Origin: a virus
Strand: one strand, 5' to 3'
Virus record (IMG/VR): IMGVR_UViG_3300049437_000037
DNA length: 38,677 nucleotides
The translations under genes were made by a program, and so were the position numbers. The stretch's first letter is position 1; every line of letters begins with the position of its first letter. A model generated the notes under the pieces. That model saw nothing but the letters and a program-made list of their open reading frames with translations, made no database searches and was not told where the DNA came from. Of this stretch, positions 6,563 through 37,521 are shown one piece after another.

Positions 6563-6601
6563 CCCAATGAAGTCGAAATGCAGTCGAACGGAGGTTCGAA
6601 C

Positions 6602-7071: not shown

Positions 7072-7124
7072 GGCAACGGTGCTCAGCGGCGCGAGCGACA
7101 GTGCGCGATACAGGAGATTCACAG

Positions 7125-13661: not shown

Positions 13662-13699
13662 GCGGCCACACTCAAACGAGTGTGGCCGCTTTTGTTTTT
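13662..13699 (+). terminator. Rho-independent terminator
   Basis: An 11-bp perfect GC-rich stem, GCGGCCACACT (13662-13672) paired with AGTGTGGCCGC (13679-13689), with a 6-nt loop, followed by TTTTGTTTTT. Confidence 0.85.
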
Positions 13700-13712
13700 C
13701 TCAGAGGTGAAC

Positions 13713-15667: not shown

Positions 15668-17249
15668 CCGTCTCGACGAGCGCGCAGGCGAGCGCTTCTA
15701 TTTCGATGAGCGCGCGGCCATCGTGGCGGTGGCGTTCTTCGAGCGACTGTTGCATCACTCGAAGGGCGAGTGGGCCGGGCACCTGTTTACGCTGGAGCCC
15801 TGGCAGCGGCAGATCATCCGCGAGATCTTCGGCTGGAAGCGGCGCGCCGATGGCACCCGGCGCTACCGCAAGGTCTACATTGAGATCCCGAGGAAGAACG
15901 GCAAGTCAACTCTGAGCGCCGGCATCGCGCTGTTCCTGCTGATGGCCGATGGCGAGAAGGGAGCCGAGGTGTACTCGGCGGCCGCCGATCGGGAGCAGGC
16001 CGGCATCGTGTTCCGCGAGGCGAAGGCCATGGTCAGCGACTCGCCGAGCCTGGCCGAGATGGCGCAGGTCTACAAGGGCTCAATCGTCATCGAGAGCGAG
16101 CGGTCGTACTACCGCGTACTGTCGGCGGATGCGTTCACCAAGCACGGCTTGAACGCGCACGGGGTGATGATCGACGAGCTGCACGCTCAGCCCAACCGGG
16201 AGCTGTTCGACGTGCTGGTCACCTCGACCGGTGCGCGCCGGCAGCCGATGGTGGTGATGATCACCACAGCCGGCTATGACCGCGAGTCGGTCTGCTGGGA
16301 GCAACACGAGTATGCACGCAAGATTCAGCAGGGCATCATCGACGACCCCGAGTGGTACGTGGCTATTTTTGCTGCGGACGAGGCGGACGATTGGCGCGAC
16401 CCTGCGGTGTGGGCTAAGGCTAACCCCAACCTGGGCGTGTCGGTCAAGGCCGATTACCTGGAGGCTGAGGCGAAGCGGGCCGAGCAGGTGCCTGCGTACC
16501 AGAACACGTTCCGCCGGCTGCACCTGAATCAGTGGACGCAGCAGGAGACCAAGTGGCTCGACTTGGCGATGTGGGATGCCTGCGGCGAGCCGATGGACAA
16601 GGCGCTGTTGGCTGGGGCGAAGTGCTACGGCGGACTTGACCTGGCCAGCTCCAGCGACATTGCGGCGTTCGTGTTGTGTTTCAGCGCCGAGCCGGGCGAG
16701 CCGGAGCACTACACGTGGCTGCCGCACTTCTGGATTCCGAAAGACAACATGGTTCAGCGCAGCCTGAAGGACCGCGTGCCGTATGACGCTTGGGTGCGCG
16801 ACGGCCTGATGACGGCGACCGAGGGCAACGTGATCGACTTCGAGGTGATCGTGCGCGACATCGAGGCGCTCGGCGAGGTCTACGACATCGAGGAGATCGC
16901 GTTCGACCGGTGGGGCGCGTTCCAAATCTCGACCAAGCTGACCGGCATGGGGTTCACGATGGTCGGCTTCGGACAGGGGTTCGTCAGTATGAGCCAGCCG
17001 ACGAAGGATCTGTTACGGCTGACCATGGCGCGCCAGCTCAGCCACGGCGGCAACCCGGTGTTGCGTTGGATGGCTGACAACATCGTGGTCGACCAGGACG
17101 CGGCCGGCAACGTCAAGCCGAATAAGGCCAAGTCGCGGGAGAAGATCGACGGCGTGGTGGCCGGGGTGATGGCGCTCGACCGGGCGATCAAACACTGGGG
17201 CGTCGACACGGGCAGCGTGTACGCGCATCGAGGGATCAGGACCATATGA
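15651..17249 (+). CDS. terL: Terminase large subunit (Terminase_1 family)
   Basis: 532 aa. Walker A 'IPRKNGKST' is present, along with 'FTLEPWQRQIIREIFGW' and a C-terminal nuclease region. Confidence 0.95.
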   Translation: MAAAVDRLDERAGERFYFDERAAIVAVAFFERLLHHSKGEWAGHLFTLEPWQRQIIREIFGWKRRADGTRRYRKVYIEIPRKNGKSTLSAGIALFLLMADGEKGAEVYSAAADREQAGIVFREAKAMVSDSPSLAEMAQVYKGSIVIESERSYYRVLSADAFTKHGLNAHGVMIDELHAQPNRELFDVLVTSTGARRQPMVVMITTAGYDRESVCWEQHEYARKIQQGIIDDPEWYVAIFAADEADDWRDPAVWAKANPNLGVSVKADYLEAEAKRAEQVPAYQNTFRRLHLNQWTQQETKWLDLAMWDACGEPMDKALLAGAKCYGGLDLASSSDIAAFVLCFSAEPGEPEHYTWLPHFWIPKDNMVQRSLKDRVPYDAWVRDGLMTATEGNVIDFEVIVRDIEALGEVYDIEEIAFDRWGAFQISTKLTGMGFTMVGFGQGFVSMSQPTKDLLRLTMARQLSHGGNPVLRWMADNIVVDQDAAGNVKPNKAKSREKIDGVVAGVMALDRAIKHWGVDTGSVYAHRGIRTI

Positions 17250-20809: not shown

Positions 20810-21253
20810 ATGAACCTGATTACGAGCGTCAAGATTGAGGAAGTCGGCGCGCCGGTGGCCAACGCGAACAACACCGACCAGAACAGCGACCGGCTCGACA
20901 TGAGCGGATGGGACGGCGTGGTGTTCATCGTGCCGATCACCGACTGCGTGCAGGCCGGCGTGGCAACGCTGAAGGTCGAAGAGAACACGTCGGACAGCGA
21001 CACGGGCATGACTGCGCTGACCGGCGCGACGGCCACGGCCACGTCGGCGGGCAACGACGACCTGAACAACATGCTGTTGGTGGTCGATGTGTATCGCCCG
21101 CGCGAGCGGTATGTGCAGGGCGTGATCACCTCGGCGACGCAGAACATCGCGTTCGGCAACACCATCGCGATCCGCTACCAGGGCCGCAAGCTACCGATCA
21201 CCGAGGCGGCGAGCATCGCCGATTCGGCCATCGTGATCAGCCCGGCTGAATAG
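20810..21253 (+). CDS. Hypothetical head-module protein (possible decoration or accessory)
   Basis: AGGAGA lies upstream of the ATG. 147 aa, beta-rich, directly downstream of the capsid gene. Confidence 0.55.
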   Translation: MNLITSVKIEEVGAPVANANNTDQNSDRLDMSGWDGVVFIVPITDCVQAGVATLKVEENTSDSDTGMTALTGATATATSAGNDDLNNMLLVVDVYRPRERYVQGVITSATQNIAFGNTIAIRYQGRKLPITEAASIADSAIVISPAE

Positions 21254-21324
21254 CGCTGCCGTTTGTGGATGGATGAATGGCGCGCCGGTCGTTTGTGGGC
21301 CGGCGCGCAGGATGGAGATGACAG

Positions 21325-21921
21325 ATGGCAGACCTTTCCTACACGGCCAAGGTATACGAGCAGCAAGGCGGCGAGCGGTTGGTGGTGGCCAGCGGCGGGT
21401 CGCTCGACGTGGAGTCGGGCGGCGAGATCGACATCGAGTCCGGCGGGTCGTTGAAGATCGCCGGCACGGCGTTGACAACGACGGCGGCAGAGCTAAACAC
21501 GCTGCACTCCCCGCCGGCGTATGCGGACGGGTTGGCGATTCAGGTGGCGCGATTCACGTTCGACCCGTCGCTGACGGCGGGCATGCGGACCATTGCCGCG
21601 CACGGACTGGGCGTGAGCCTGCCGGCTAAGGCGATCATCCTGGACGGCGTGATCGATGTGGTGACCACGTTCACGAGCGCGGGCGCCGATGCCGGCACGA
21701 TCGCGATCAGCGTCGAGGGCGCGAATGACATCGTGACGGCAGTCGCTATCGCGGACGGTGGCAACCCCTGGGACGCCGGGCTGCACATGATCATCCCTGT
21801 CGTGAGCGTGGCCACGATGGTGAAGACGACCGTGGCCCGCGAGATCACGGCGACGGTGGCCGTGCAAGCGTTGACGGCCGGCAAGCTGCACGGGTTCCTG
21901 CGCTACGTCGTGAGCGAGTGA
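21325..21921 (+). CDS. Hypothetical head-module protein with an N-terminal 'SGGSLDVESGGEIDIESGGSLKI' repeat
   Basis: 198-aa ORF with high GC3 in the head module. Confidence 0.55.
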   Translation: MADLSYTAKVYEQQGGERLVVASGGSLDVESGGEIDIESGGSLKIAGTALTTTAAELNTLHSPPAYADGLAIQVARFTFDPSLTAGMRTIAAHGLGVSLPAKAIILDGVIDVVTTFTSAGADAGTIAISVEGANDIVTAVAIADGGNPWDAGLHMIIPVVSVATMVKTTVAREITATVAVQALTAGKLHGFLRYVVSE

Positions 21922-21928
21922 GGCACCT

Positions 21929-22306
21929 ATGTACGCAGAGCGACATGTGGTGACGGTGACGACCATCGCGGACGGGTCGGCGACAGCCTATTCGCCGGTG
22001 ATCACGGGCCGGATCGTCTCGATCCGCTACGTCAAGCCGGCGCAGGGCGGATTCGATAACGGCGTGGGGTTCACGATCACGGCCGAGGCGACCGGAGAAA
22101 CGATCTGGGCTGAGGCGGCGGTGAACGCATCGGCCACCCGCGCGCCGCGCCAGGCCACGCACTCGACGGCGGGTGTGGCGGCTCTGTTTGCGGCGGGCGG
22201 GACGGCCGTCGGCGACGCGATCGTGCTGGCTCAGGACCGGGTCAAGATCGTAGTGGCGGCGGGCGGCAATGTGCTGACCGGCACGTTCCACATTCTGGTG
22301 GCCTGA
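21929..22306 (+). CDS. Hypothetical structural-module protein
   Basis: 125-aa ORF, closely packed in the head module. Confidence 0.55.
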   Translation: MYAERHVVTVTTIADGSATAYSPVITGRIVSIRYVKPAQGGFDNGVGFTITAEATGETIWAEAAVNASATRAPRQATHSTAGVAALFAAGGTAVGDAIVLAQDRVKIVVAAGGNVLTGTFHILVA

Positions 22307-22573
22307 ATGAGCAGAGTCAAACTCTTGACACTGATGGCCGGCCCGACTGGTGTGTTCCAGCCCGGCCAGATCGTGACCATTTCCACGGACATGGCGACGG
22401 CGCTGGTGGCCGGCGGATACGCCGAGATGGTCGACCAGGTCGCCGACCCGGTCGAGGCGAGTGGATTGCCGGCGGCGGCGCCCAGCGGCGGGCCACCTGT
22501 TGAGCTGGCGATAGACGTGGCGCCTGAGACGGCGACCGCACCTGCGCAACGTCGGCGAGGGCGCAAACCATAG
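22307..22573 (+). CDS. Hypothetical protein
   Basis: The ATG immediately follows the previous stop. 88 aa. Confidence 0.5.
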   Translation: MSRVKLLTLMAGPTGVFQPGQIVTISTDMATALVAGGYAEMVDQVADPVEASGLPAAAPSGGPPVELAIDVAPETATAPAQRRRGRKP

Positions 22574-22679
22574 ACGGCTGTGCGGTTTTGCGGACGGCCG
22601 CATAGCCGCTCCTCCTGACACCTGGCCGGGTGGAGGCGCGATGTGCGGGCATCGAGCTGCCCGGCCAGGCGAAATAACT

Positions 22680-23270
22680 ATGAGCGCGATCACAGTCATC
22701 ACAGGACCGATCAGTGAGCCGGTGAGCCTGGCCGAGGCCAAGGCGCAATGCCGCGTCGATGTGACCGATGACGACGCGCTGCTCACGGCCCTAATCGTGG
22801 CGGCGCGCGAAGAGGTCGAGCGGCACACCTGGCACGCCATGGTCAGCCAGACGCTGGAGCTGGTACTCGATCGCTGGCCGGCGTGCACGTTTGTCGAATT
22901 GCCCAGGCCGCCTTTGGCGAGCGTGACATCGATCAAATACAAGGATGCCGATGGCACAGAGACCACGTGGAACAGCGCGAACTACATCGTCGCGGCAGCT
23001 CACATTCCGGGCCGGGTGGTCCTGGCTGACGGCGCAAGCTGGCCGAGTGACACGCTGTACCCGACTGAGGCGATCCGCATCAGGTACGTGGCCGGGTGGG
23101 CGAGCGCGGCGGTCGTGCCGCAATCGCTGAAGCAGTCCATGTTGATGCTGATCGCGCACTGGTACGAGATGCGCGAGGCGGCTGTCGCCACGGGCGCGAT
23201 CCCGAAGGACGTGCCGTTCGGGGTGGATGTGTTGCTGGGTTCGTTTCGCGAGAGGGCGCGGTCAAGATGA
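22680..23270 (+). CDS. Head-tail connector protein (gp6-like / DNA-packaging family)
   Basis: 'VSLAEAKAQCRVDVTDDDALLTALIVAAREEVERHT' is the typical gp6-like N-terminus. Confidence 0.8.
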   Translation: MSAITVITGPISEPVSLAEAKAQCRVDVTDDDALLTALIVAAREEVERHTWHAMVSQTLELVLDRWPACTFVELPRPPLASVTSIKYKDADGTETTWNSANYIVAAAHIPGRVVLADGASWPSDTLYPTEAIRIRYVAGWASAAVVPQSLKQSMLMLIAHWYEMREAAVATGAIPKDVPFGVDVLLGSFRERARSR

Positions 23271-23590
23271 TACAGGCGGGCCAGCTCCGGCACCGGGTCA
23301 CGATCAAGTCGAAGACGGTCACGCAGAACGGCTTCGGCGAAGAGGTGATCACATGGGCCACGGTGGCCACGGTGTGGGCGGCAGTCGAACCGCTGAGCGG
23401 GCGCGAGCTGGTGTCGCAGCAGCGCACCGAATCGCTGATGACACACCGGATTCGCATCCGCCGGCGCACCGACCTGGACCCGACGATGCGGGTTCACGAA
23501 GGGGCGCACGTGTACCAGGTCGACTCGATCCTGGATGCGAATAAGCCGGGCGAGATGGTGCTGATGGGCACGGAAGTGGTCAATGGGTGA
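23267..23590 (+). CDS. Head closure / head-tail adaptor protein (SPP1 gp16 / Phage_H_T_join family)
   Basis: ATGA overlap with the preceding gene. 'LRHRVTI......QN.FGE....W..V..VWA.VEPLSGRE' is the family pattern. Confidence 0.8.
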   Translation: MIQAGQLRHRVTIKSKTVTQNGFGEEVITWATVATVWAAVEPLSGRELVSQQRTESLMTHRIRIRRRTDLDPTMRVHEGAHVYQVDSILDANKPGEMVLMGTEVVNG

Positions 23591-24080
23591 TGTGCTGGGC
23601 GTCAAGATGGAGGGCGGCGAAGAGATGCTGAAGGCGCTTGCCGACCTCGGCGAGAACGTTAAGAAAACGCTCAGAGGCTCCATGCGCGTCGGCGGGCGGG
23701 TCATCCAGGCCGATGCCGATGCCCGCGCGCCCAGTTCGAGGTCCGGAAAGAAGGCCGTGTTGAAGGTGTCATCGCCCAAGCGCGGCCAGGTCGAGGCGCG
23801 CATTCAGCCGTCGAAGCGGTTCTGGTATCTCAAGTTCGCCGAAACCGGCACGACCCGGCACGAGATCAAGGCCGGCGGCGGTAAGCCGATCACGTTCGAG
23901 GGCGATACGGGCCTGATTCGCACCGGTGTGGTGAGCCACCCCGGCGCGCCGGCGCGGCCCTGGTTGCGGCCTGCGTTCGACAGCAAATCGGGCGAAGCGG
24001 TTGACGCGCTTGGCGAGTCGCTGCGCGGGGCGGTCGAGGCGGCCAGGATTGCAGCCGAAGGGCAGGATGACGAAGACTAA
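23583..24080 (+). CDS. HK97 gp10-family tail/neck component
   Basis: 'ARAP..SG.....L........V..RI.PS.R.WYLKF.E.GT' and 'HPG.PARPWLRPAFD' are present. Confidence 0.8.
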   Translation: MGDVLGVKMEGGEEMLKALADLGENVKKTLRGSMRVGGRVIQADADARAPSSRSGKKAVLKVSSPKRGQVEARIQPSKRFWYLKFAETGTTRHEIKAGGGKPITFEGDTGLIRTGVVSHPGAPARPWLRPAFDSKSGEAVDALGESLRGAVEAARIAAEGQDDED

Positions 24081-24490
24081 TGACGGCTGAAGAGGGATTG
24101 GTGGTCTTGCTGACGACCGACACGGCGATCACGGCGCTGATCGGTGCGCCGCCGGTCGCGCGGGTGTACCCGCTGGTCATCCCGCAGGATGCGGACATGC
24201 CGGCCATCGCGTATCAGCGGATCAGCAGCGTCCCGAGCCGGTCGCACAGCGGGTTTTCAGGCATCACTCAGACGCGGTTTCAGGTGACGGCTGAGGCGGA
24301 TATGTACTCGACCGTCAAGGCGCTGGCCATCGCGATCCGACGGCGGTGCGAGGCGTATCACGGCGGCCTGGGCGGCGTGATGTTTCACTCTGTGTTTGTC
24401 GAAAACGAGACGGATGGCTGGGCCGACTTCGGCGAGCCGCCGGCGCCGGTGGTGAGGATCGATCTGATGGTCACTCACAGTGAGGTGTAG
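24080..24490 (+). CDS. Tail terminator / tail completion protein (DUF3168-like)
   Basis: TAATG overlap with the preceding gene. 'L..D.AITALIG....RVYP.V.PQDA..PAI.YQ.IS' is the family pattern. Confidence 0.75.
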   Translation: MTAEEGLVVLLTTDTAITALIGAPPVARVYPLVIPQDADMPAIAYQRISSVPSRSHSGFSGITQTRFQVTAEADMYSTVKALAIAIRRRCEAYHGGLGGVMFHSVFVENETDGWADFGEPPAPVVRIDLMVTHSEV

Positions 24491-24493
24491 AGG

Positions 24494-25861
24494 ATGGGTT
24501 TTTATCGTAATCGATACAGTGGCGCAAAGCCAGCCGTGGTCGTGGCTGTGCTGGCCGCATTCGTGGTGTTGGCCTGCATCGTTGGGCCGGCTGTGCCGGC
24601 GCTGTTCGCGCGCACGCCGCCGGCGGTGGGTGCCCAAGTGGGTGCCCAGGCCACCCCGCGAGTGGTGGACCACACCACGATCAACCTGTTCTATCAGCTC
24701 GCGGCGGATGATGTGGAGCTGGCTCGCTTACGTTCGTGGCTCGTGATGTACGGTGATAAGTCGGTCGGCGACAACATCCGCACGGGGCTGACGTGCCTGG
24801 CCGGCACGGGCCCGGACAGTTGCGCGCCGGCGCTGGAGCAGCTCGGCCTAACAGATCTGGCCGGGCCACGTTTCAGCATGACCAACATCCGCTACGCGAT
24901 GATGGACGAGGCGGGGTGCGGGAACTGGGACGAGCTGGGGCAGTGTTTCCAGAACGAAGTCAACGCCATGCCGGGCGACTACGCCGCGCTGTCCTGGGGC
25001 CACAGCTACATGGAGGTCGAGCAGCCGGACGTGTTGCGGTATTTCAACGACCTCGGCGCGCCGGGCAACGTGGTCGCATATGAAGGCTACCAGGACACGA
25101 AGGGCGTGCCGCGCTGGTACTGGACCAGCTCGCTGAACAACGGTTCGAACGATGAGGCGGCCAGCTATAACGCGGCGATGCGGGCTCGTGCGACCCAAAC
25201 GGGCGGTGTGTTGCTCGACACGGCTGACCTGTTGAGTTACGACCTGAACGGCGATGCGTGCACGTCGTTGCTGGGGTACATGCCGGGCCTGTGCAATCCC
25301 GCCTACACCATCCAGACCACGGTAGGCGGCGGGCATCTGACCAAGCTCGGCCAGGTTCGCGGGGCAATGGCGGTGTGGCTGTCCCTGGCGTTCCTGGATG
25401 GCTGGTCAGGCGCGCCGGAGCCGCCACCAGAGCCCAGCGCCACCGCGACCAGCATCCTACAAAGCCCGCTGGCCACGCCCACGCCGCCATGCGCGTGTGA
25501 GCCGTGTCCGTGCACGACGGTGACAGTGACGCCCACGGTGGTTCCTGCGACGGCTACGGCGACGGCGACCGCTACTCCGCGCCCAACGGCCACGTCAACA
25601 CGCACGCCCGCGCCGACAGTGACGCCCACGGCCGTACCCACGGCCGTACCCACGGCCGTTCCCACGGTCGCGCCCACCGCTACGGCTGGCGGAGTGCAGT
25701 GTGTGATGGCCGCCGACATGGCCGCGTTCACGGCGGACCTATACGAGACCGTTCTCAACTATCCATATCAGAACTGGAGCGCGATCGTCAACGGCGGCGC
25801 GATCACGCAAATGAAGGTGCGCGCTCAGAAGACGGCGTGCGAGGCGCAGGCGCAACGATGA
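24494..25861 (+). CDS. N-terminally membrane-anchored protein with a putative SGNH/GDSL-like hydrolase domain, a long Pro/Thr/Ala linker and a small Cys-containing C-terminal domain
   Basis: The Ala/Gly/Val-rich TM is 'AVVVAVLAAFVVLACIVGPAVPALFA'. Candidate SGNH blocks are 'YGDKSVGDN', 'GSNDEAASYNAAMRA...GGVLLDTADLL' and 'GGGHLTKLG'. The linker reads 'TPTVVPATATATATATPRPTATSTRTPAPTVTPTAVPTAVPTAVPTVAPTA'. Confidence 0.6.
   Translation: MGFYRNRYSGAKPAVVVAVLAAFVVLACIVGPAVPALFARTPPAVGAQVGAQATPRVVDHTTINLFYQLAADDVELARLRSWLVMYGDKSVGDNIRTGLTCLAGTGPDSCAPALEQLGLTDLAGPRFSMTNIRYAMMDEAGCGNWDELGQCFQNEVNAMPGDYAALSWGHSYMEVEQPDVLRYFNDLGAPGNVVAYEGYQDTKGVPRWYWTSSLNNGSNDEAASYNAAMRARATQTGGVLLDTADLLSYDLNGDACTSLLGYMPGLCNPAYTIQTTVGGGHLTKLGQVRGAMAVWLSLAFLDGWSGAPEPPPEPSATATSILQSPLATPTPPCACEPCPCTTVTVTPTVVPATATATATATPRPTATSTRTPAPTVTPTAVPTAVPTAVPTVAPTATAGGVQCVMAADMAAFTADLYETVLNYPYQNWSAIVNGGAITQMKVRAQKTACEAQAQR
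25625..25672 (+). repeat. 12-bp tandem repeat (CCCACGGCCGTA-type x4) encoding (PTAV)n in the linker
   Basis: Units at 25625-36, 25637-48 and 25649-60, with a degenerate unit at 25661-72. Confidence 0.8.
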
Positions 25862-26052
25862 ATGGGCTCACACCCCGGCACGTGGCGATCCTGCAACTGA
25901 TGGCCGAGGGGTTGACCTCGAAGCAGATCGGGGAGCGGCTGGGGATCAAGCGGGTGACGGTCGAGTCGCACCGGCGCACGATGGCCCGGCGCATGGGCGT
26001 GCAGGGGCTGGCACCGATGATTGTGCGGGCCGTCAAACAGGGGCTGATATGA
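25858..26052 (+). CDS. Stand-alone LuxR/GerE-type HTH transcriptional regulator (64 aa)
   Basis: 'LTPRHVAILQLMAEGLTSKQIGERLGIKRVTVESHRRTMARRMGV' is a near-textbook GerE domain. There are ATGA overlaps with both neighbours. Confidence 0.85.
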   Translation: MNGLTPRHVAILQLMAEGLTSKQIGERLGIKRVTVESHRRTMARRMGVQGLAPMIVRAVKQGLI

Positions 26053-26873
26053 GCGACTGGCCGTTGTATTCCGGATCCCGGCACACCACCTACGGCGCTG
26101 CGACGGCCGCTTCGAGCGGCACGCAGATCGCCTACACCGTCGCCAACACGAAGAGCGGCTGGAATCAGGTCACGGCATCGACGGCGCACGACGCGCACGA
26201 GATCTGGCTGTACGCCTACGGTGAGACGAGCGCCTGCGACATGCTGGTCGACATCGGCGTGGGCGGGGCCGGCAGTGAGCAGGTGGTGCTGCCTAACTTG
26301 GTGATCACCTCGCGCGACACGACGGCGGCCATGCCGAGTGCCATCAAAATGCCGTGCTTCATCCCAGCCGGCAGCCGTATCGCGATCCGGTTTCAGAACT
26401 CCGTGGGCGTGTCGACCATGCGGTACGTGCTGACCATCGTGCAACTGGGCGGGCTGTGGCCGCCCACATTTCAGCGCATCACAGCCTACGGGACCAACGC
26501 GGCGGACTCCGGCTCGGTATCAGTTGATCCGGGCGCAAGCGCCAACACGAAGGGGTCCTATAGCGAGATCGAGGATGCGACGGCCAACCCGATCCGGCTC
26601 CTGTGGATTGCGTTTGGCCTGCAGTCCAACACGGCCCGCACCGACTACACGTGGCTGGTAGACATCGCCATTGGCGGGGCCGGCAGCGAACAGATCATCA
26701 TCCCGGATATCTGGATTGCGATCTCTGCCAGCCGCGATACCGTTGTTCAGCAGTTCATCGGGCCGTTCGAGGTCAGTATCCCGGAAGGCACTCGGTTGGC
26801 CGTGCGGATGCAGTGCTCAGGCAACGACGCGGCGGATCGCCTGCTCGACGTGGCCCTGTATGGAGCGGACTAA
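26049..26873 (+). CDS. Hypothetical protein built from two homologous beta-sandwich-like halves
   Basis: The halves share 'LVDIGVGGAGSEQVVLPNLVI...IPAGSRIAIRFQ' and 'LVDIAIGGAGSEQIIIPDIWI...IPEGTRLAVRMQ'. Confidence 0.65.
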   Translation: MSDWPLYSGSRHTTYGAATAASSGTQIAYTVANTKSGWNQVTASTAHDAHEIWLYAYGETSACDMLVDIGVGGAGSEQVVLPNLVITSRDTTAAMPSAIKMPCFIPAGSRIAIRFQNSVGVSTMRYVLTIVQLGGLWPPTFQRITAYGTNAADSGSVSVDPGASANTKGSYSEIEDATANPIRLLWIAFGLQSNTARTDYTWLVDIAIGGAGSEQIIIPDIWIAISASRDTVVQQFIGPFEVSIPEGTRLAVRMQCSGNDAADRLLDVALYGAD

Positions 26874-26875
26874 CT

Positions 26876-27208
26876 ATGGCAGTCGGTTTGAAAACATCGG
26901 GCTCGCAGACGGCAACGCTCACGACCGAGCACACCCTGGCGACGATTACGGACGCCGGCACGTATGAGCTGTGGGTGGACACCGACGCACTGGTCAATGG
27001 CGAGACGGTGGTGCTCAAAGCCAAGTGCAAGCTGGCCGGCAGCGGCGACACGGCCAAGTTGGAATGGCAAGCGGTGTACGTGCATGATCAGGGCGCGGAC
27101 ATTATCAAGCGCAGTGGGCCGATCCCGGGCCCGTTCTCAATTGAGTTCACCCTGACCCAAACCGGCGGGACAGGGCGCGCCTTCCCGTGGGCGATTTATT
27201 CCTATTAG
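26876..27208 (+). CDS. Hypothetical protein (110 aa, beta-rich)
   Basis: Internal ATG of ORF 26603..27208, 3 nt after the previous stop. Confidence 0.55.
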   Translation: MAVGLKTSGSQTATLTTEHTLATITDAGTYELWVDTDALVNGETVVLKAKCKLAGSGDTAKLEWQAVYVHDQGADIIKRSGPIPGPFSIEFTLTQTGGTGRAFPWAIYSY

Positions 27209-27219
27209 GAGTGTGAGCA

Positions 27220-27822
27220 ATGTCGAAATCAGTGCATGATGATGTGCTCGATGGGGCGCTGAACATCGTCAAAAACAACGTCACGACGATGACCATGTGT
27301 TCTGTCGCGCCGACCACGCGCACCGAGGCCATCACGACCTACGCCCTGGCAGATGTGGCCGTTGGCAGTAGCGATGTGACGGCAGCCAACGGCGACACAT
27401 CGGGCCGGAAGATGACCGTGGCGGCCAAGACCGGCGTGACCGTGGATGCGACCGGCATGGGCACCCATATCGCGCTCGTGGATGGCACGCGGTTGCTGTT
27501 TGTGACCGAGGCCAACACCGTGAGGCAGAACACGGCCCAGGCGGGCGGCGCAAGCACGATCACGCTCGACGCGAGCGCCTCGGCAGTGGACAGCTTCTAC
27601 AACAACATGGCCGTGACCATCGTTTCGGGCGTTGGGATCGGGCAGACGCGGTACATCTCCGGCTATGTTGGCTCGACGAAGGTCGCCACGGTGGGCAGCG
27701 CGTGGTCGGTGACGCCTGACAACACCAGCGTGTTTCGCATCTATGGCCAGCAGCTCACCGCGGGCGGCGGGAACACCATCGACTTCGCGGCGTGGGATTA
27801 CGAACTAGCTGACCCGTCCTAG
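27220..27822 (+). CDS. Hypothetical virion-associated-like protein
   Basis: AGGAG lies upstream of the ATG. The motifs 'DALN.VKNN.T.M..CS..PTT..EA' and 'ASTITLDASASAVDSFYNNMAVTIVSGVGIGQTRYISGYVGSTKVATV' recur in phage appendage proteins, as recalled from memory. Confidence 0.55.
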   Translation: MSKSVHDDVLDGALNIVKNNVTTMTMCSVAPTTRTEAITTYALADVAVGSSDVTAANGDTSGRKMTVAAKTGVTVDATGMGTHIALVDGTRLLFVTEANTVRQNTAQAGGASTITLDASASAVDSFYNNMAVTIVSGVGIGQTRYISGYVGSTKVATVGSAWSVTPDNTSVFRIYGQQLTAGGGNTIDFAAWDYELADPS

Positions 27823-27841
27823 CGGACTCGCCTTCTGACTC

Positions 27842-28630
27842 ATGAGCACAATTCTCAGGCTGTGGACACCGGCAGTCATTGCCACGGTTGCCGGCGTGTC
27901 AGTGTCGCCGGTCGATGCAGCCAGCACGACCCTGGCCGATGCCGTCACTATCTCCCAGGCGCATCACGTCGCGCCGGTGGACGGCCTGAGTGCCGGCGCC
28001 GCCGATGCCGTATCGGTAGTGCAGCATCACGCGACAGCGCCCACTGATGCCCTGAGTGGTTCGGCAGTCGATGCTGTCGCCGTCGCGCAAGCCCATCACG
28101 CCGCGCCGGTCGACGGGCTGTCGTCTACGGCCGCCGAAGCGGTCTCGGTCACGCAGGTATCCCAGGTCGGGCCGGTTGATGCCACAAGCACAAGCGTGGC
28201 CGATGCCATCACAGTGACGCAGGCGCATCAAGTGACGCCTGTCGACGCAATGAGCGCAACCACTGCGGACGCGGTGACGGTTACGGAGATCGCCGCCGGG
28301 ACCATCGCGCCGGTGGATGCCACGACGGCGGGAGCGGCCGAAACAGTCACGGTCACGCAGACGTATGGCGTGAGCGGAGTCGACGCAACTTCGCTCACGA
28401 CTGCCGATGCGGTCACGGTCATAGTTCCGACCGTCTCCAACGTTGCGCCGGTAGATGGTTTGAGCCGGACTGCGGCGGACGCGGTGACGGTGACTGTGTC
28501 CAGCGGGCGGCTGACCTCGGCGACGGCCACAGTCACTCAATGGACGCTCACGGCCACGGTCACGCAGGCCACGCGCAGGGCGACGGTGACGCAGCGGACG
28601 TACACGGCGGAGGTGACGATCAATGGCTGA
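27842..28630 (+). CDS. Tandem-repeat protein (nine units of ~22 aa, 'PVD..S...ADAVTV.Q.H..') with a C-terminal 'ATVTQ' mini-repeat
   Basis: 262-aa ORF. The repeats are visible in the translation. No SD lies before the ATG, so the start is uncertain. Confidence 0.6.
   Translation: MSTILRLWTPAVIATVAGVSVSPVDAASTTLADAVTISQAHHVAPVDGLSAGAADAVSVVQHHATAPTDALSGSAVDAVAVAQAHHAAPVDGLSSTAAEAVSVTQVSQVGPVDATSTSVADAITVTQAHQVTPVDAMSATTADAVTVTEIAAGTIAPVDATTAGAAETVTVTQTYGVSGVDATSLTTADAVTVIVPTVSNVAPVDGLSRTAADAVTVTVSSGRLTSATATVTQWTLTATVTQATRRATVTQRTYTAEVTING
27908..28504 (+). repeat. Coding tandem repeat with ~66-bp period, 9 diverged units
   Basis: Units start at each 'CCGGT(C/G)GA(T/C)' (PVD) codon triplet. 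Unit lengths are 22-24 codons. Confidence 0.8.
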
Positions 28631-28979
28631 GCTCAATATGCACCGGGGCGATACGCTGTCGTTCGATCTGGCGGTCACGGATGGGGTCGGCGCGCCGGTC
28701 AATCTGGCAGGCGCGAGCCTGCGCTTCACGGCCAAGCGATCGACGAGCCAGGCCGACAGCGCGGCGCTGATCGCGCTGACGATTGGCGACGGCATCACGG
28801 TGACGGACGCGGCCGGCGGACTCGCCCACGTCGAGGCGACGCCGGCGAAGACGAGCGGGTTGGAGGCAGCGACGCTATCGCTGACCTGGGACGTGCAACT
28901 AACCACCGGGACGCAGGTATTCACAGTGGCCAGCGGCTATCTGACGGTGATGCCAGACGTGTCGCTGACCGTGCCATAG
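28623..28979 (+). CDS. Hypothetical Ig-like/beta-sandwich protein
   Basis: 'RGDTLSFDLAVTDGVGAPVNLAGASLRFTAKR' is a pattern common in small phage structural proteins. Confidence 0.55.
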   Translation: MAELNMHRGDTLSFDLAVTDGVGAPVNLAGASLRFTAKRSTSQADSAALIALTIGDGITVTDAAGGLAHVEATPAKTSGLEAATLSLTWDVQLTTGTQVFTVASGYLTVMPDVSLTVP

Positions 28980-29011
28980 GATGGGCCATCGGATGGCGCC
29001 ATAGGAGGATC

Positions 29012-29281
29012 ATGGAACCAGGTATTTCCACGGACATGCCCGCCGGCGAGCCGGTCGAACTCGTCGATGGACAGTGGCAGCCGGGCGTCTGGAATGAGCT
29101 GCAGCAACTGACCTGCGTGCAGTGCAAATGGGACACGCTCGACGGGATCGAGGCGGCGCGCGCGCACAAGGCCGCGTGCCCACGATGCGGGCCGGGCGGA
29201 TCTCCGCCCGCGTCGCCCAGCGGGATATTGATCGCGGATCGCTGGGGCAACCCAGTCAACACCAACACGGAGGGCAAATAA
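29012..29281 (+). CDS. Hypothetical small protein with a zinc-ribbon-like CxxC...CxxC
   Basis: AGGAGGA lies upstream of the ATG. The pattern is 'CVQCKW...CPRCG'. Confidence 0.55.
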   Translation: MEPGISTDMPAGEPVELVDGQWQPGVWNELQQLTCVQCKWDTLDGIEAARAHKAACPRCGPGGSPPASPSGILIADRWGNPVNTNTEGK

Positions 29282-29632
29282 ATGCCAAGACAAACACTGA
29301 CGAAGACAGCCGCGCCGGGCAACTGGGCAGCCGCCGGCGTGGCGGTGACGATGACGGCCGCCAACCCAACCGACAAGGAACAGTTCGTCGCGCAGGGCAA
29401 GGACTTGCTGCTGGTGCAGAACACCGACTCGGGCGCGCATACATTCACGCTCAATTCGACGGCGGACCCGTATGGCCGGACGAAGGACATCACGACGGAG
29501 TCGGTCGCGGCGGGCGCGATACGAGTGCTCGGCCCGCTAGAGCTGACGGGGTGGGTGCAGAGCGACGGGAAAATCTACCTGGAGGCCAACAGCGCCCTGA
29601 TCAAGTTCGGAGTCATTACGCTGCCGGGTTGA
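29282..29632 (+). CDS. Hypothetical protein (116 aa, beta-rich)
   Basis: TAAATG junction with the previous gene. Confidence 0.55.
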   Translation: MPRQTLTKTAAPGNWAAAGVAVTMTAANPTDKEQFVAQGKDLLLVQNTDSGAHTFTLNSTADPYGRTKDITTESVAAGAIRVLGPLELTGWVQSDGKIYLEANSALIKFGVITLPG

Positions 29633-29666
29633 GCCTGGCAGGCACATGCAGACGGAGGTATGAGAC

Positions 29667-30095
29667 ATGGCACTCAGTGCATTCGGTACGTTGTTGAAAA
29701 TCGGTGACGGCGCGGGGCCGGAGGTGTTCACCACGGTCGCCGAGGTCAAGGCGATCGGCGGGCCGACGATCAAGGTGGACACGGTCGACCTGACCACGCA
29801 CAGTTCGACGGGCGCCTGGCGCGAGTTCATGCCGACCCTGATCGACGCCGGCGAGTTGACGTTCGATGTCAACTTCATCCCGACCAACGCCACGCAGAGC
29901 CAGTCGACGGGGTTGCTGAAGGACCTGAAGAACCGCACGAAGCGCAACTGGCAATTGGTGTTCCCGGATGGCAGCAGCACCACGTGGGCGTTCGCCGCCT
30001 ATGTGACCGGGTTCCAGATCTCGGCGCCGCCGGACGACCTGCTCGGCGCGAGTGTGACGTTGCGCCTGACTGGGCAGCCGACGTTGGCCGGATAG
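29667..30095 (+). CDS. Major tail protein (TP901-1/phi13-like)
   Basis: GGAGG lies upstream of the ATG. 'FGTLLKIGDG.....F..VAEVK.I.GP......VD.T.H.S....EF.P.LID.GE..F' is the family pattern. The chaperone/TMP genes lie downstream. Confidence 0.8.
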   Translation: MALSAFGTLLKIGDGAGPEVFTTVAEVKAIGGPTIKVDTVDLTTHSSTGAWREFMPTLIDAGELTFDVNFIPTNATQSQSTGLLKDLKNRTKRNWQLVFPDGSSTTWAFAAYVTGFQISAPPDDLLGASVTLRLTGQPTLAG

Positions 30096-30100
30096 GCCCA

Positions 30101-30125
30101 CGAATCGGGCAACGAATAAACGAAT
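30101..30125 (+). repeat. CGAAT-periodic element, copy C
   Basis: CGAATCGGGCAACGAATAAACGAAT, lying between the MTP stop and the chaperone SD. Confidence 0.7.
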
Positions 30126-30138
30126 CATCGGGAGGATC

Positions 30139-30543
30139 ATGGCTTTTCTGACAAAGACACAAATCCTGGAGGTCGATGACCGCCAGACGGAAGTCGTCGC
30201 CGTGCCGGAGTGGGGCGGCGACGTGATGGTGCACGGGCTGACCGGCGCGGAGCGCGACCAGTTCGAGGCATCGGTTATCAGCCGGAAGGGGCGCGACACG
30301 AACGTGAACATGGTCAACTTTCGGGCCAAGCTGATCGCCCTGTCGGTGGTCGATGCTGAGACCGGCGTACGGCTGTTCGATGACTCGGACGTCGGCCCGC
30401 TGGGGCGCAAGTCGGCAGCGGCATTACAGCGCGTGTTCGACGCGGCGCAAAAACTCTCTGGCTTGAGCCGGGAGGACGTAGACGAACTCACAAAAAACTC
30501 AGAGAGCGAGCCGAACGGCGATTCTGGTTCCGGCTCGCTCTGA
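30139..30543 (+). CDS. Tail assembly chaperone (gpG-like)
   Basis: GGGAGGA lies upstream of the ATG. The gene sits between MTP and TMP and carries a slippery site near its 3' end. Confidence 0.8.
   Translation: MAFLTKTQILEVDDRQTEVVAVPEWGGDVMVHGLTGAERDQFEASVISRKGRDTNVNMVNFRAKLIALSVVDAETGVRLFDDSDVGPLGRKSAAALQRVFDAAQKLSGLSREDVDELTKNSESEPNGDSGSGSL
30492..30541 (+). other. Programmed -1 ribosomal frameshift signal: A_AAA_AAC heptamer plus downstream 11-bp stem-loop
   Basis: The heptamer at 30492-30498 is in the correct X_XXY_YYZ phase for the frame starting at 30139. The -1 frame is open from 30498 and in phase with ORF 30546..30851. The stem pairs 30503-30513 with 30531-30541. Confidence 0.75.
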
Positions 30544-30545
30544 GC

Positions 30546-30851
30546 ATGGGGCGCACGGTCGCCGAGTTGCAGGCGGCCATGAGCAGCCGGGAGTTCACCG
30601 AGTGGCAAGCGTACTTCGCGCTGGAGCCGTTCGGCGAAGAGCGGGCCGACATCCGGGCGGCGCTGGTGGCCAGCGTGATCGCCAACGTGAACCGCAACCC
30701 GAAGAAGCGGTCGAGCCCGTTCGCTGTGAAGGACTTCATGCTGAGGTTTGGCGAAGCGGCCGGGTCACGTGAGCAGAGCGTAGAGCAGCAACTGAGCCTG
30801 GTCGAGATGCTGAACGCGGCGTTCGGCGGAGTGGATAAGAGAAAACACTGA
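30546..30851 (+). CDS. Tail assembly chaperone extension (gpT-like); probably made mainly as a G-T fusion
   Basis: It is in the -1 frame relative to the 30139 gene. 'FTEWQAYFALEPFGEERADIRAA' resembles gpT-type segments. There is a TGATG junction with TMP. Confidence 0.7.
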   Translation: MGRTVAELQAAMSSREFTEWQAYFALEPFGEERADIRAALVASVIANVNRNPKKRSSPFAVKDFMLRFGEAAGSREQSVEQQLSLVEMLNAAFGGVDKRKH

Positions 30852-32752
30852 TGGGCACACTCGCGACACTGGTGGTCAAGCTGGTTGGTGATGTCGGCAA
30901 CTTCATCACCAACATGGACAAGGCCGGCACCTCGGCGAACAAAACTGCCGGCGCGATCGTCGACGCTATCCAGGGCGGGGCGAAGGTGATCGGCGGCGCG
31001 TTCGACGTGATCACCGGCGACTACTCCAAGATGGGCGACATGCTGGGCATGATCCCAGGACCTATCGGCCAGATCGGCAAGATGGCCGGCGACGCGCTGG
31101 GCTCGATCATCGAGGATACCGTCGAGGCGGCCGAGGGGTTTCGCAAACTGTCGGCGGCCACAGGCTCGTCGGTCGAGTTCCTGAGCGGCTTCACCGAGGT
31201 GGCCGATGACATGCGGGTCGACAGCGAGACAGTCGCGGCGGGGTTGGAGAAGTTCGCGCGCGGCCTGGGCGGGATTGTCGAGGCCGGCGAGGGCGTGAGC
31301 GAATCGACCAAGGGGATCGCCGGGGCGCTCAACAAGATGGACATCGCGCTGTACGACTCGACCGGCAGTATGCGCGACATGGAGCAGCTTATTCCGCAGG
31401 TGGCCGATGCGTTCATGCGGATGCCCGACGGCCCGAACAAGACGGCTATCGCGGTGCAACTGTTCGGCAAGAAGGGCGCGGAGTTGATCCCGATCCTGAA
31501 CCTGGGCAGCCAGGCTATGAAGGAAAACATGGCGGCGGCCAAGGCGATGGGGCTGGTCTACACCGATGAAACCGTCAAAGCGGTCGATAAACTGAAGGCG
31601 TCTCAGGACTCGATCGGCGATTCGTTCGAGGGGGTCAAGCGGTCGATAGGAATGGGAGTTCTGCCGGAGCTGGCCAGGCTGACCGGGCACCTGAACGAAA
31701 ACCTGCAATCGACCACACAGAGCGGATTCGGATTCGAGACGTTGAAAAAGAATGTCGAGTCGTGGGTGGCCGTGCTGACCGGCGCATCAGCCGACACGTC
31801 GACGGCCAAAGACATCCAGATCACGTACCACAACGCGGTTGCAGACACGGTGCCGAATGTCGACCGATTGATCGAGGCGACGAAGGCGAATTCGGTGTCG
31901 TTCGTGGAGTACAGCGAAGAGGCGATGAACGCGGCGACACGCGACCGTGAGCTGGCGCAGATCGTGGAAGAAACACGGGCAGCGCACGATCGGCTGCGGG
32001 AGTCCGTGAATCTCGCCACGGCGGCCTACACGGCGAGCACGGACCCGCTGAAGGCGTTGGAGGCGGCCCAGATCGCGTTCAAGATCGCGACGGGCCAGAT
32101 GACAGCCGAGGACTTGCTGCAACAGCAGGCCAAAAAGGAGCTGATACAGGAGTACCAGAACGGCATCCTTACCCTGCCGCAACTCACAACCCAGATGATT
32201 CAGCTCACCAATGGCACGTTGGGCGCGAATGACGTGCTGGCGCGGGGCACGCCGACGGCGGCGGGATATAGAGGCGAAGTGACTCAGATCATAGGCGCGG
32301 CGAACGATGCAGCCACAGCGGCGCAGAACCTGGTCACACCGCTGAACAACACCAACACGGCCGCATCGAACGCAGCCGAGGCGGCGGCGCGGCTGAAGAC
32401 CAAGCTGGGCGAGATCCCGTCGACTGTATCGACGACTTTGAGAATAGTTTTGCAGTCGGACATCCAATCGTCGGCGGATATCTGGGATGCGTTCTACCGC
32501 GCGGCCGGCGGCCCGGTCGAAGCCGGCCAGCCGTACATCGTGGGCGAGCGTGGGCCGGAAGTGTTCGTGCCGGATGTGTCGGGCGAGATCGTGCCCGACC
32601 TGGGCAGCATGAGCCACACGGCGCTACCCGACGACGGCGAAACGCGGCAGGTGACGATCACACAGCAGTTCTACGGCAAAGCAGACCCGGCCCAGGTGCG
32701 CGACGCGACGGCGGACGCGATTCGCAGCTCCGGACTGATGGTGGTGAACTAA
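30851..32752 (+). CDS. Tail tape measure protein
   Basis: 633 aa, helical and Ala/Gly-rich, in the canonical position after the G/GT chaperones. Confidence 0.85.
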   Translation: MGTLATLVVKLVGDVGNFITNMDKAGTSANKTAGAIVDAIQGGAKVIGGAFDVITGDYSKMGDMLGMIPGPIGQIGKMAGDALGSIIEDTVEAAEGFRKLSAATGSSVEFLSGFTEVADDMRVDSETVAAGLEKFARGLGGIVEAGEGVSESTKGIAGALNKMDIALYDSTGSMRDMEQLIPQVADAFMRMPDGPNKTAIAVQLFGKKGAELIPILNLGSQAMKENMAAAKAMGLVYTDETVKAVDKLKASQDSIGDSFEGVKRSIGMGVLPELARLTGHLNENLQSTTQSGFGFETLKKNVESWVAVLTGASADTSTAKDIQITYHNAVADTVPNVDRLIEATKANSVSFVEYSEEAMNAATRDRELAQIVEETRAAHDRLRESVNLATAAYTASTDPLKALEAAQIAFKIATGQMTAEDLLQQQAKKELIQEYQNGILTLPQLTTQMIQLTNGTLGANDVLARGTPTAAGYRGEVTQIIGAANDAATAAQNLVTPLNNTNTAASNAAEAAARLKTKLGEIPSTVSTTLRIVLQSDIQSSADIWDAFYRAAGGPVEAGQPYIVGERGPEVFVPDVSGEIVPDLGSMSHTALPDDGETRQVTITQQFYGKADPAQVRDATADAIRSSGLMVVN

Positions 32753-37170: not shown

Positions 37171-37521
37171 ATGGCACCACAAGCTACCTGTGAACTGATG
37201 AAACTATCCGGCTCCACGGACGGGCGGATGATCAAGGTCGTAGCCACGGCCACGGCAGGCACCACGATCCACACCGCCGGCGCTGGGCTGGATGAGGTGT
37301 GGTTGTACGCGGTGAACTCGTCAACCTCTGCCGTGAAGCTGACGATTGAGAAGGGCGGCACCACCTCGCCAGATGACACCATCGAGGTTACGATCCCGCC
37401 AGAGGCCGGCCTGACACCGGTTCTGCCTGGGATGCTGATGCAGAACTCGCTGGTCATCAAGGCATTCGCGGGGAGCGCGAACGTGGTGATGATCGACGGG
37501 TGGGTCAAGCGATGGGCCTGA
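37171..37521 (+). CDS. Hypothetical beta-sandwich protein, paralogous in pattern to the halves of the 26049..26873 product
   Basis: AAGGAGAA lies upstream of the ATG. 'DEVWLYAVNSS...IEKGG....D.IEVTIPPEAG' can be compared with 'HEIWLYAYGET...IGVGGAGSEQ...IPAGSR'. Confidence 0.55.
   Translation: MAPQATCELMKLSGSTDGRMIKVVATATAGTTIHTAGAGLDEVWLYAVNSSTSAVKLTIEKGGTTSPDDTIEVTIPPEAGLTPVLPGMLMQNSLVIKAFAGSANVVMIDGWVKRWA

Follow-up and report, generated by a model that had tools for sequence, protein, structure and literature searches.

A mosaic gene block with a portable five-gene cassette, putatively encoding an accessory fiber, separates the tail terminator and tail tube genes of a temperate siphophage genome

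The 38,677-nucleotide (nt) stretch of viral DNA analyzed here (IMG/VR record IMGVR_UViG_3300049437_000037, referred to below as the window) represents a temperate siphophage-type genome of ~65% GC, in which positions 24494 to 29632, located between the gene for the tail completion (terminator) protein and that for the major tail (tube) protein, are filled by nine plus-strand open reading frames (ORFs), here designated B1 to B9. Comparison with related and unrelated phage loci leads us to conclude, with high confidence, that this block is mosaic, being made up of three or more separately inherited units that have accumulated where modules of the late operon meet. The overall explanation that best accommodates the data, advanced here with moderate confidence, is that the block combines a portable accessory-fiber cassette (B3 to B7), a gene pair specifying an envelope enzyme and a regulator (B1 and B2), and a gene of the phage backbone (B9).

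Nine genes interrupt the terminator-tube junction

Relatives of the tail protein were taken from viral contigs, genomes, and metagenomes, and in all of those with upstream context (>20) the tail protein gene was directly preceded by a terminator-like gene specifying ~125 to 141 amino acids (aa). A terminator homolog was detectable at this position in, among others, L011, L012, L030, L031, L137, L147, L148, L153, and L156 (L numbers designate fetched loci), and in L020 to L026, L028, L126, L129, L136, L150, and L158 the gene was assigned on the basis of its size and position. A few loci harbored one small additional ORF, or a homolog of B9, between the two genes, and never more than this; the nine-gene block was absent from all fetched relatives of the tail protein, near-identical contigs aside. 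Since the two genes adjoin each other in these relatives, the block indeed interrupts the terminator-tube junction, as had been proposed in a first-pass annotation made from the sequence alone. A scan of metagenome contigs with the terminator protein of the window itself returned no match.

Both flanks of the block were confirmed by Pfam matches (Table 1). The order of head-tail joining genes assumed for the left flank in the first-pass annotation is in agreement with Pfam, the gp10-like gene being recovered only as a weak match. The assignment of the gene at 29667 as that of the major tail protein is likewise upheld by Pfam and PHROG, with matches to three tail-tube Pfam families, and by the downstream presence of genes for the tail assembly chaperones G and T, followed by that of a 633-aa tape measure protein. 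A better tail-tube candidate was sought within the block, and none of B1 to B9 matched a tube family. B9 yielded an hhalign probability of 0.1% against the tail protein, and the presence of a better candidate within the block was rejected; negative hhalign results, here and below, are weak, because the alignments are shallow and even the neck families missed one another.

The genes of the block are tightly packed and co-directional, with internal intergenic distances of -8 to +32 nt; 3 nt separate the block from the terminator gene and 34 nt from the tail protein gene. ATGA overlaps are present at B1/B2 and B2/B3, and at B8/B9 the TAA stop codon is immediately followed by ATG. These values apply to corrected gene starts, those of B2 (25858) and B4 (26876) having been revised relative to a list of longest ORFs so as to give products of 64 and 110 aa, respectively; both corrected starts match the gene calls on identical metagenome contigs. 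The GC content at third codon positions (GC3) of the block genes (0.75 to 0.88) resembles that of the flanking genes, and no flanking direct repeats pointing to site-specific insertion were found. A sequence scan of positions 22000 to 31000 gave neither a sigma-70-like promoter nor an intrinsic terminator above chance, using a consensus which may not be that of the host, and the internal promoter envisaged in the first-pass annotation was thus not recovered.

Mosaic origin of the block

When the window was compared by blastn with L033, a 49-kb contig, the alignment was confined to positions 26049 to ~28906 (64 to 77% identity), its left limit coinciding exactly with the ATG of B3 (26049) and its right limit falling inside B7. 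The corresponding protein identities were 83 to 84% for B3, 67% for B4, 94% for B5, 51% for B6, and 59% for B7. No backbone proteins matched between the window and L033, whose capsid protein, tube-like protein, and tape measure protein are without a match to those of the window. In L033, the cassette is located directly behind the tape measure gene (Pfam TMP_3) and a gene for a 136-aa protein, and is followed by genes for two very large proteins of 1557 aa and >1000 aa, one of which has weak PHROG matches to 'tail protein'. Outside the window, B1 and B2 were encountered solely in near-identical contigs, L032 among them. Because B9 recurs beside the tail protein gene in relatives of the window (see below), the true insert more likely comprises eight genes, B1 to B8. 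Inheritance of all nine genes as one unit was rejected, given that the shared cassette begins exactly at the start codon of B3.

These comparisons bear directly on a different reading, according to which B1 to B9 form one functional system, i.e., an appendage placed under the control of its own LuxR-type regulator, B2, with the SGNH-type enzyme B1 maturing or assisting it. Such a reading draws on the tight packing of the genes and the ATGA overlaps which join B1, B2, and B3, and also on the occurrence of B2-like small LuxR/GerE ORFs near B3-B4 pairs on two otherwise unrelated contigs, one being located two genes upstream of B3 (L043, positions 9280 to 9486) and the other near B3 (L051, positions 13662 to 14021). 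The shared cassette, however, starts at the ATG of B3 and leaves out B1, B2, B8, and B9; more than 80 loci harbor the B3-B4 pair without a homolog of B1; and the B9 family occurs without the rest of the block. A single system is, therefore, considered quite improbable. With regard to the earlier suggestion of a virion appendage equipped with its own regulator, an appendage is the best-supported role for B3 to B7, but the regulator does not belong to the same unit, as the DNA homology covers only B3 to B7.

Table 1. Coordinates and assignments of the block genes, flanking genes, and selected other genes of the window
Feature	Coordinates	Strand	Length (aa)	Description or supporting match
B1	24494-25861	+	455	Anchor, SGNH-fold core, Pro/Thr-rich linker, C-terminal domain
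B2	25858-26052	+	64	PF00196 GerE; ATGA start overlaps B1 stop
B3	26049-26873	+	274	Tandem jelly-roll; opens shared cassette
B4	26876-27208	+	110	Obligate partner of B3
B5	27220-27822	+	200	122-aa core with ~80-aa insertion
B6	27842-28630	+	262	Nine 22-24-residue repeats, then short ATVTQ-type repeat tail
B7	28623-28979	+	118	Small, beta-rich; last cassette gene; phrog_1084 (unknown function), 7e-19
B8	29012-29281	+	89	Orphan four-cysteine protein; CVQC and CPRC in translation
B9	29282-29632	+	116	phrog_24894, 2e-8; phrog_16194 'tail protein', 3e-5
Tail completion/terminator protein, SPP1 gp17 type (left flank)	24080-24490	+	136	PF11367 Tail_completion_gp17, 1.6e-10
Major tail (tube) protein (right flank)	29667-30095	+	142	Phage_TTP_12, 3e-12; phrog_158 'major tail protein', 2.5e-22
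Connector (gp6-like)	22680-23270			Pfam Phage_connect_1, 2e-10
Head completion protein	23267-23590			Pfam Phage_HCP, 2e-28
gp10-like gene	23583-24080			Weak Pfam match, 0.0026, below cutoff
Large terminase	15651-17249			
Tyrosine integrase	222-1541	-		

The B3-B4 pair within structural operons

B3 belongs to a large family (at least 676 clusters at E < 1e-3), the 120 matches listed being of 261 to 289 aa and devoid of Pfam domains. The duplicated beta-sandwich perceived in the first-pass annotation proved to be a tandem jelly-roll: the alignment contains the motif NTKGSW..L.AST...LVDIGxGAAGSEQ...IPAGSR.A.R.Q twice, a 40-nt repeat recurs in the DNA of B3 at a spacing of 411 nt, and an AlphaFold2 (AF2) model with a predicted local distance difference test score (pLDDT) of 88.6 consists of two jelly-roll sandwiches. 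Foldseek comparison with the PDB returned generic jelly-rolls (GH172/DUF2961, single-chain TNF ligands, and viral capsid proteins), and the best folds in the viral library were those of Gordonia phage minor tail proteins and cyanophage tail-fiber-like proteins (query TM-score of 0.39 to 0.45). Relatives of B3 are encoded on 203 IMG/VR contigs, and a tblastn search of 50,697 GenBank phage records retrieved none. In L074, L078, and L116, one or two B3 units form the N terminus of ORFs of 762 to 1534 aa, the remainder of which is without a named family.

B4 adjoins B3, usually after and occasionally before it, in 70 of 84 loci according to tblastn and in 81 loci according to jackhmmer, and B3 itself is often tandemly duplicated across loci. 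B4 has no Pfam or PDB match and, by hhalign, shows no relation to B3. The pair is always co-directional with the structural operon in which it resides, at a junction that varies between phages: it follows the connector gene in L100 and the tape measure gene in L033, and in L035 (a Herbidospora prophage), L041, L049, and L089 it is located just after the genes for the major capsid and head proteins and before that for the head-tail adaptor.

The last of these arrangements raises the possibility that B3 to B7, or at least B3 and B4, decorate or cement the capsid, their place beside tail genes in the window being a recombination accident. Jelly-roll folds serve in some capsid cement proteins, e.g., that of Bordetella phage BPP-1, and a neighbor of B3 in other loci (the Gp80-like protein described below) also matches phrog_240 'head protein'. 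Against this stand the position of the cassette after the tape measure gene in L033 and before the tail protein gene here, the fusion of B3 to giant tail-like proteins, and the minor tail and tail-fiber proteins which make up its best viral fold matches; in addition, the GP4 and Bas63 homologs of the neighboring families attach to the neck rather than to the capsid lattice. A capsid-decorating role is, accordingly, judged unlikely.

B5, B6, and B7

B5 consists of a widespread core interrupted by an insertion (Table 1), and its relatives fall into 1597 clusters. Stand-alone forms of 122 aa (P0312 to P0391), 65 to 80% identical to the B5 core, are distributed across otherwise unrelated metagenomic phages, a degree of conservation which is unusually high for a phage accessory protein. 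Carriers of the core include Mu-like and lambda-like backbones and a metagenome-assembled genome of Thermodesulfobacteriota. Among cultured phages, a tblastn search identified B5 relatives in three, all with hypothetical annotations only. The short form directly precedes a Pfam Gp77 adaptor gene in the Mu-like prophage L118/L119 and in L117, as it likewise does in Microcystis phage Mae-JY22, and in the lambda-like phage L120 it belongs to a group of six genes inserted between those for the portal and the capsid.

The 22-aa repeat, present nine times, that had been noticed in B6 was substantiated by a repeat table and by a 66-nt period in the DNA; its motif, PVDxxSxxxADAVTVTQxHxxx, produces an autocorrelation peak at lag 22. 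On these grounds the protein is predicted to be fiber- or rope-like. The L033 homolog, at 316 aa, contains more repeats, and a related motif with a 22-residue period, xxDAxHxHxADxxxLTQxHxL, fills the C-terminal halves of fiber-like proteins encoded beside the B5 core. A protein with 22-residue repeats accompanies the B5 core in six of the six lineages seen (including L033, L073, L117, L118, and L120) and, because this co-occurrence extends to every lineage examined, B5 and the 22-residue-repeat protein are regarded as a conserved pair.

B7 shows, besides the PHROG match in Table 1, a weak match to phrog_5774 'head-tail joining' (0.0086), and its relatives among cultured phages (tblastn) are confined to two unannotated Streptomyces phages. 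Nothing meaningful was retrieved from the PDB by sequence or profile searches with B1, B3, B4, B7, B9, and the B5 core.

Proposed function of the cassette

The gene neighborhoods of B3-B4 pairs in other phages bear on the function of the cassette. The gene located one or two positions upstream of B3 in ~16 loci specifies a protein matching PF23140, 'podophage GP4 fiber I protein gp80' (8.8e-30), and iterated searches detected homologs of PF23148, 'GP4 fiber-tail adaptor gp77' (PDB 8jou_D), downstream of the B3-B4 pair in 12 loci, 11 of them at a distance of 1 to 2 kb; in the remaining one, L060, the Gp77-like gene is 7.4 kb away from the pair. Across the 83 B3 loci, Gp80-like genes were thus present near the pair in 16, Gp77-like genes in 12, and B5-core genes in 3, at least one of these occurring in 26 (mostly within ~2.4 kb), counts which include duplicate contigs.

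Among the loci fetched with the tail protein, only the lineage represented by L031 and L156 carries a Gp80-like, Gp77-like, or B5-core gene. In L031 (~1400 to 8200; equivalent in L156), a 6.8-kb block specifying proteins of 217, 459, 1046, and 93 aa is located between the capsid and connector genes; the connector is 45% identical to that of the window, and the 217-aa protein is Gp80-like, i.e., a member of the GP4 fiber I family. This looks like an analogous accessory-fiber block at another junction of a related backbone.

The statement in the first-pass annotation that none of the nine proteins resembles a standard tail or neck component was, consequently, too strong: B9 matches a PHROG 'tail protein', the fold of B3 is like that of actinophage minor tail proteins and its domain is fused to giant tail-like proteins, and the B3-B4 and B5-B6 families adjoin GP4-type fiber and adaptor genes in other phages. 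We consider it somewhat more probable than otherwise that B3 to B7 are virion appendage proteins. Following co-transcription with the tail genes, they would assemble into an accessory fiber that attaches along the tail or close to the head-tail junction. B6 may form an extended repeat shaft, or rope, which B5 would decorate, the repeats serving as B5 binding sites by analogy with phages Bas63 and GP4; B3 could constitute a lectin-like distal knob or adhesin together with its partner B4, and B7 is a candidate small adaptor. By further analogy with the neck fiber of phage A-1(L) and the decorations of lactococcal phages, such fibers would assist in reversible binding to surface glycans rather than in primary recognition.

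A more specific version of this proposal, which we offer as speculation and regard as rather doubtful, is that B5 and B6 make up an undescribed 'bead-on-rope' fiber, in which each of the nine B6 repeats would bind copies of the B5 core, with B3 and B4 capping the structure, and that B3 to B7 would act as a self-contained plug-in for any junction of the structural operon, whether capsid-connector, terminator-tube, or tape measure-tip, while still attaching to the particle.

Several observations weigh against assignment of the cassette to an accessory fiber. Approximately two thirds of the B3 loci are without a recognizable fiber or adaptor neighbor, and the window itself contains no match to Gp77 or Gp80 by Pfam or jackhmmer. 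Pairwise hhalign comparison gave a probability of 7% for B5 against the Gp80-like family and of <1% for B7 and B4 against Gp77, and the apparent tie to the GP4-type system is solely one of gene neighborhood in other phages. The fold matches of B3 are weak (query TM-score of ≤0.45), jelly-rolls being generic, and B4, B7, and B8 are without informative homology.

We also considered the possibility that B3 to B7 are nonstructural cargo, functioning in lysogenic conversion or counter-defense, which merely rides in late operons. The movement of the cassette between junctions and backbones would suit such a role, as would the absence of the B3 family from cultured phages and the fact that no protein of the cassette has a characterized structural homolog. 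Yet the cassette is always co-directional within structural operons, beside fiber and adaptor homologs; it lacks an internal promoter or terminator above chance; and it includes a fiber-like repeat protein of variable copy number and a protein, B3, that is found fused to large tail-like proteins. No PADLOC match was obtained for the cassette, and the counter-defense role mooted in the first-pass annotation drew no PADLOC match anywhere in the block other than weak helix-turn-helix (HTH) matches for B2. A cargo function for B3 to B7 is, on this evidence, very improbable.

B1 and B2, a candidate envelope enzyme and a regulator

B1 is composed of a hydrophobic anchor (~aa 13 to 39), a core of ~280 aa (~aa 45 to 325), a Pro/Thr-rich linker, and a C-terminal domain of ~60 aa. 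It matched no family of Pfam, NCBIfam, or PADLOC at E ≤ 0.1, and no Pfam SGNH family was found among 45 of its relatives. A word-indexed search with full-length B1 gave a single match, the candidates having apparently been swamped by the Pro/Thr linker, and 226 relatives were returned when only the core was used in an exhaustive phmmer search. Nearly all of these possess a signal peptide, lipobox, or anchor, followed by a Pro/Thr linker and then the domain, and several contain in addition Laminin_G_3, dockerin, PKD, Big_9, cadherin-like, or SLH domains. The B1 core is, therefore, taken to represent an extracytoplasmic domain of cellular proteins, its relatives being secreted or anchored multidomain proteins.

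The AF2 model of B1 (pLDDT of 92.4) most closely resembled SGNH/GDSL-type structures, which accounted for 13 of the best 14 Foldseek matches in the PDB (GDSL lipases, acylhydrolases, PatB, and the acyltransferase SsfX3), OatA being found at rank 21. The 13 SGNH/GDSL-type matches had probabilities of 0.89 to 1.0 and target TM-scores of 0.33 to 0.68 (0.51 to 0.68 for the top matches), at E-values of ~5e-3. Ser46, in the motif D[KR]SVGxNI, and His237, in GGHL, are invariant across the 45 relatives, as are Asp198, Asp201, and two Cys residues, and the Ser and His occupy the positions expected of SGNH blocks I and V; block I is a D[KR]S variant rather than GDS. The description of B1 as a membrane-anchored SGNH-like protein is thus supported at the level of the fold only, no Pfam family having been matched, and the family is a divergent one.

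B2, which was correctly recognized as a LuxR/GerE HTH protein, matched PF00196 (GerE) over residues 4 to 56 of its 64 residues at 2.6e-15 (56.2 bits, cutoff of 23.5) and phrog_3282 'sigma factor' at 2.4e-10. As it consists of 64 aa and contains an HTH only, with no sensor or receiver domain, it is assigned to the stand-alone GerE type. A cellular homolog of B1, P0137 (367 aa), combines a LuxR HTH, a transmembrane segment, and a B1 domain in one chain; this architecture resembles that of a one-component regulator bound to the membrane, and the protein may provide a 'Rosetta stone' for interpreting B1 and B2 as a pair. Together with the B2-like ORFs of L043 and L051, this fusion gives a slight hint that B1-type domains and small LuxR regulators cooperate.

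In line with the first-pass annotation, which had singled out an envelope-targeted enzyme and a regulator, the SGNH fold, the extracytoplasmic relatives, and the GerE domain point to B1-B2 as such a pair. Given its cellular homologs and its absence from the relatives of the tail protein, the pair resembles a moron. It would represent a host-derived acquisition that alters the surface of the infected or lysogenic cell: B1 would be situated on the outer face of the membrane, where it would most likely act as an O-acyl esterase or transferase on a cell-envelope glycan, and B2 would regulate transcription. To judge from its modeled fold, B1 may or may not be an active envelope esterase or transferase, the two being given equal weight here.

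A number of features temper this interpretation of B1 and B2. The Foldseek E-values for B1 are only ~5e-3, the protein matches no Pfam SGNH model, and the Asp of the DxxH motif is absent (the sequence being GGGH instead), which Asp198 or Asp201 might substitute. The GC content (0.66) and GC3 (0.81 to 0.88) of the two genes are within the range of the flanking genes and thus show no moron-like deviation. Furthermore, B1 and B2 are packed translationally against their neighbors, with gaps of 3 and -4 nt that leave little room for a promoter, and no signal above chance for a promoter or terminator of their own was detected between 22000 and 31000.

B8 and B9

B8 matched no family, and no homolog was present in the fetched loci beyond identical copies. 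Its designation as a Zn-ribbon protein stands insofar as the CxxC...CxxC arrangement is visible in the sequence, and was not corroborated by a family match. A short palindromic repeat, GCCATAGGATGGC, is present in 2.7 copies at positions 28973 to 29006, in the 32 nt that separate B7 from B8; it lies at the right-hand limit of the shared cassette and overlaps the ribosome-binding region of B8.

B9 homologs are found directly before the tail protein gene in L015 and L135 and directly after it in L014/L139 and L151. An iterated search placed the family among approximately four neck genes, 1 to 3 kb upstream of the tail protein gene, in Streptomyces prophages and in L016 to L026, and a tblastn search of cultured phages retrieved none. 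By hhalign, B9 appeared unrelated to the tail protein, head completion protein, gp10, terminator, and connector families, the alignments being shallow. From this sequence context, B9 is probably a neck- or tail-associated backbone protein that lies outside the insert.

Other features of the window

In addition to the integrase and terminase genes (Table 1), the window encodes a Prim-Pol protein and a ParB-like protein, and identical contigs show Pfam matches to Phage_portal, Peptidase_S78, and Phage_capsid, corresponding to the portal protein, protease, and major capsid protein of a plus-strand late operon. A tRNA search found none present. Identical or near-identical copies of the window are contained in several Joint Genome Institute (JGI) metagenomes and in Logan assemblies. 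A near-match search of GenBank phages found no similar DNA from a cultured phage, and a search of the same phages for distant DNA similarity gave a single match, of 158 nt, within B5.

Between the genes for the major capsid protein and the connector, at 20810 to 22573, there are four further genes of unknown function (147, 198, 125, and 88 aa), so that the capsid-connector junction is expanded too. None of the four products has a Pfam match; a protein 51% identical to that of 198 aa is encoded directly after the capsid gene of the Herbidospora prophage L035, and the 88-aa protein has a homolog in L031/L156. With respect to the tail protein, L007 to L010, L132 to L134, L146, and L149 harbor two tandem paralogs that are 51 to 61% identical to that of the window. 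Downstream, at 30139 to 30851, the T-like chaperone ORF begins 2 nt past the stop codon of the G-like ORF and in the -1 frame relative to it, an arrangement compatible with the usual G/G-T programmed frameshift. Beyond the tail-tip genes, at 37500 to 38276, is the gene for a 258-aa protein containing a concanavalin-like lectin domain (Laminin_G_3), and this product is likely a receptor-binding or glycan-binding tail protein; a Laminin_G_3 domain is also present at the head of the 22-residue-repeat fiber protein of L118.

Significance

Accessory-gene insertion at the module boundaries of structural operons is well known, as are neck and side fibers. What is new in the present case is the terminator-tube junction as a site, the portable five-gene cassette, and a possible repeat-rope and bead architecture, as well as four large unannotated families (B3, B4, the B5 core, and the B6 repeat) which are common in uncultured phages and nearly absent from cultured ones. 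Should the proposed explanation be correct, an accessory fiber module moves as a unit between unrelated backbones and settles at different boundaries of the structural operon, which would be of use for the annotation of metagenomic phages and for the engineering of host range or surface adhesion, and an SGNH-fold enzyme with a small regulator would be a candidate for host-envelope modification from inside a late operon. The finding, which is only moderately surprising, extends current views of phage mosaicism rather than overturning them.

Comparison with known systems

B1 shares with the SGNH/GDSL superfamily (PatB, OatA, and acylhydrolases) its fold, the conserved Ser and His, and an extracytoplasmic location. 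It departs from that superfamily in matching no Pfam model, in the size of its core (~280 aa versus a typical ~200 aa), in having D[KR]S rather than GDS, and in its GGH without the Asp of DxxH. As to genomic position, gene 15 of phage HK97 is a moron located between the tail chaperone and tape measure genes, and classical morons exhibit deviating GC content and their own promoter and terminator (PMC3594210). B1 is, similarly, an extra envelope-targeted gene with cellular homologs that lies between conserved tail genes of a temperate siphophage; unlike classical morons, B1 and B2 are packed against their neighbors, with neither deviating GC content nor a detected promoter or terminator.

Lactococcal siphophages of the 936 group are described as bearing carbohydrate-binding decorations, both optional and horizontally variable, on their neck and tail tube (PMC6669499). 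Those domains belong to other families and are fused to the tail protein, the distal tail protein (Dit), or the neck passage structure (NPS), whereas the window specifies stand-alone genes of unannotated families. In the Anabaena myophage A-1(L), gp82, gp81, and gp80 form a neck fiber which has a distal carbohydrate-binding module and is dispensable for primary host recognition (PMC10966104). The parallel with the window is that of a self-assembling accessory neck fiber specified by a small operon; the A-1(L) fiber, however, is built of trimer beads stacked head to tail with no rope and is encoded at another genome location, and B3 to B7 have no sequence match in the PDB.

Podophage GP4 and myophage Bas63 provide further comparisons. 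In GP4, 15 copies of an Ig-like adaptor ring the head-to-tail adaptor and carry the fibers (PMC11445570), and a separate rope protein is present (PMC12609058). The window differs in belonging to a siphophage, in the placement of the module between the terminator and tube genes, and in having no Gp77 or Gp80 homolog, and the accounts of GP4 that were consulted name no counterpart of B3 or B4. The likeness consists in a multigene accessory fiber module around the head-tail junction, to whose homologs the relatives of B3-B4 and B5-B6 adjoin elsewhere.

In Bas63, which has a small collar protein, whisker dimers homologous to GP4 fiber I are wrapped around the 'rope' of the collar in the manner of beads on a string (PMC12609058). 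This rope is formed by an extension at the N terminus of the collar protein, whereas the repeat protein of the window is separate and much longer, and the B5-B6 pairing proposed here is drawn from co-occurrence in six lineages rather than from sequence or profile similarity. By analogy, the whiskers on a rope of the Bas63 (and Sf14) collar nevertheless offer a model for the manner in which B5 might be arrayed along B6.

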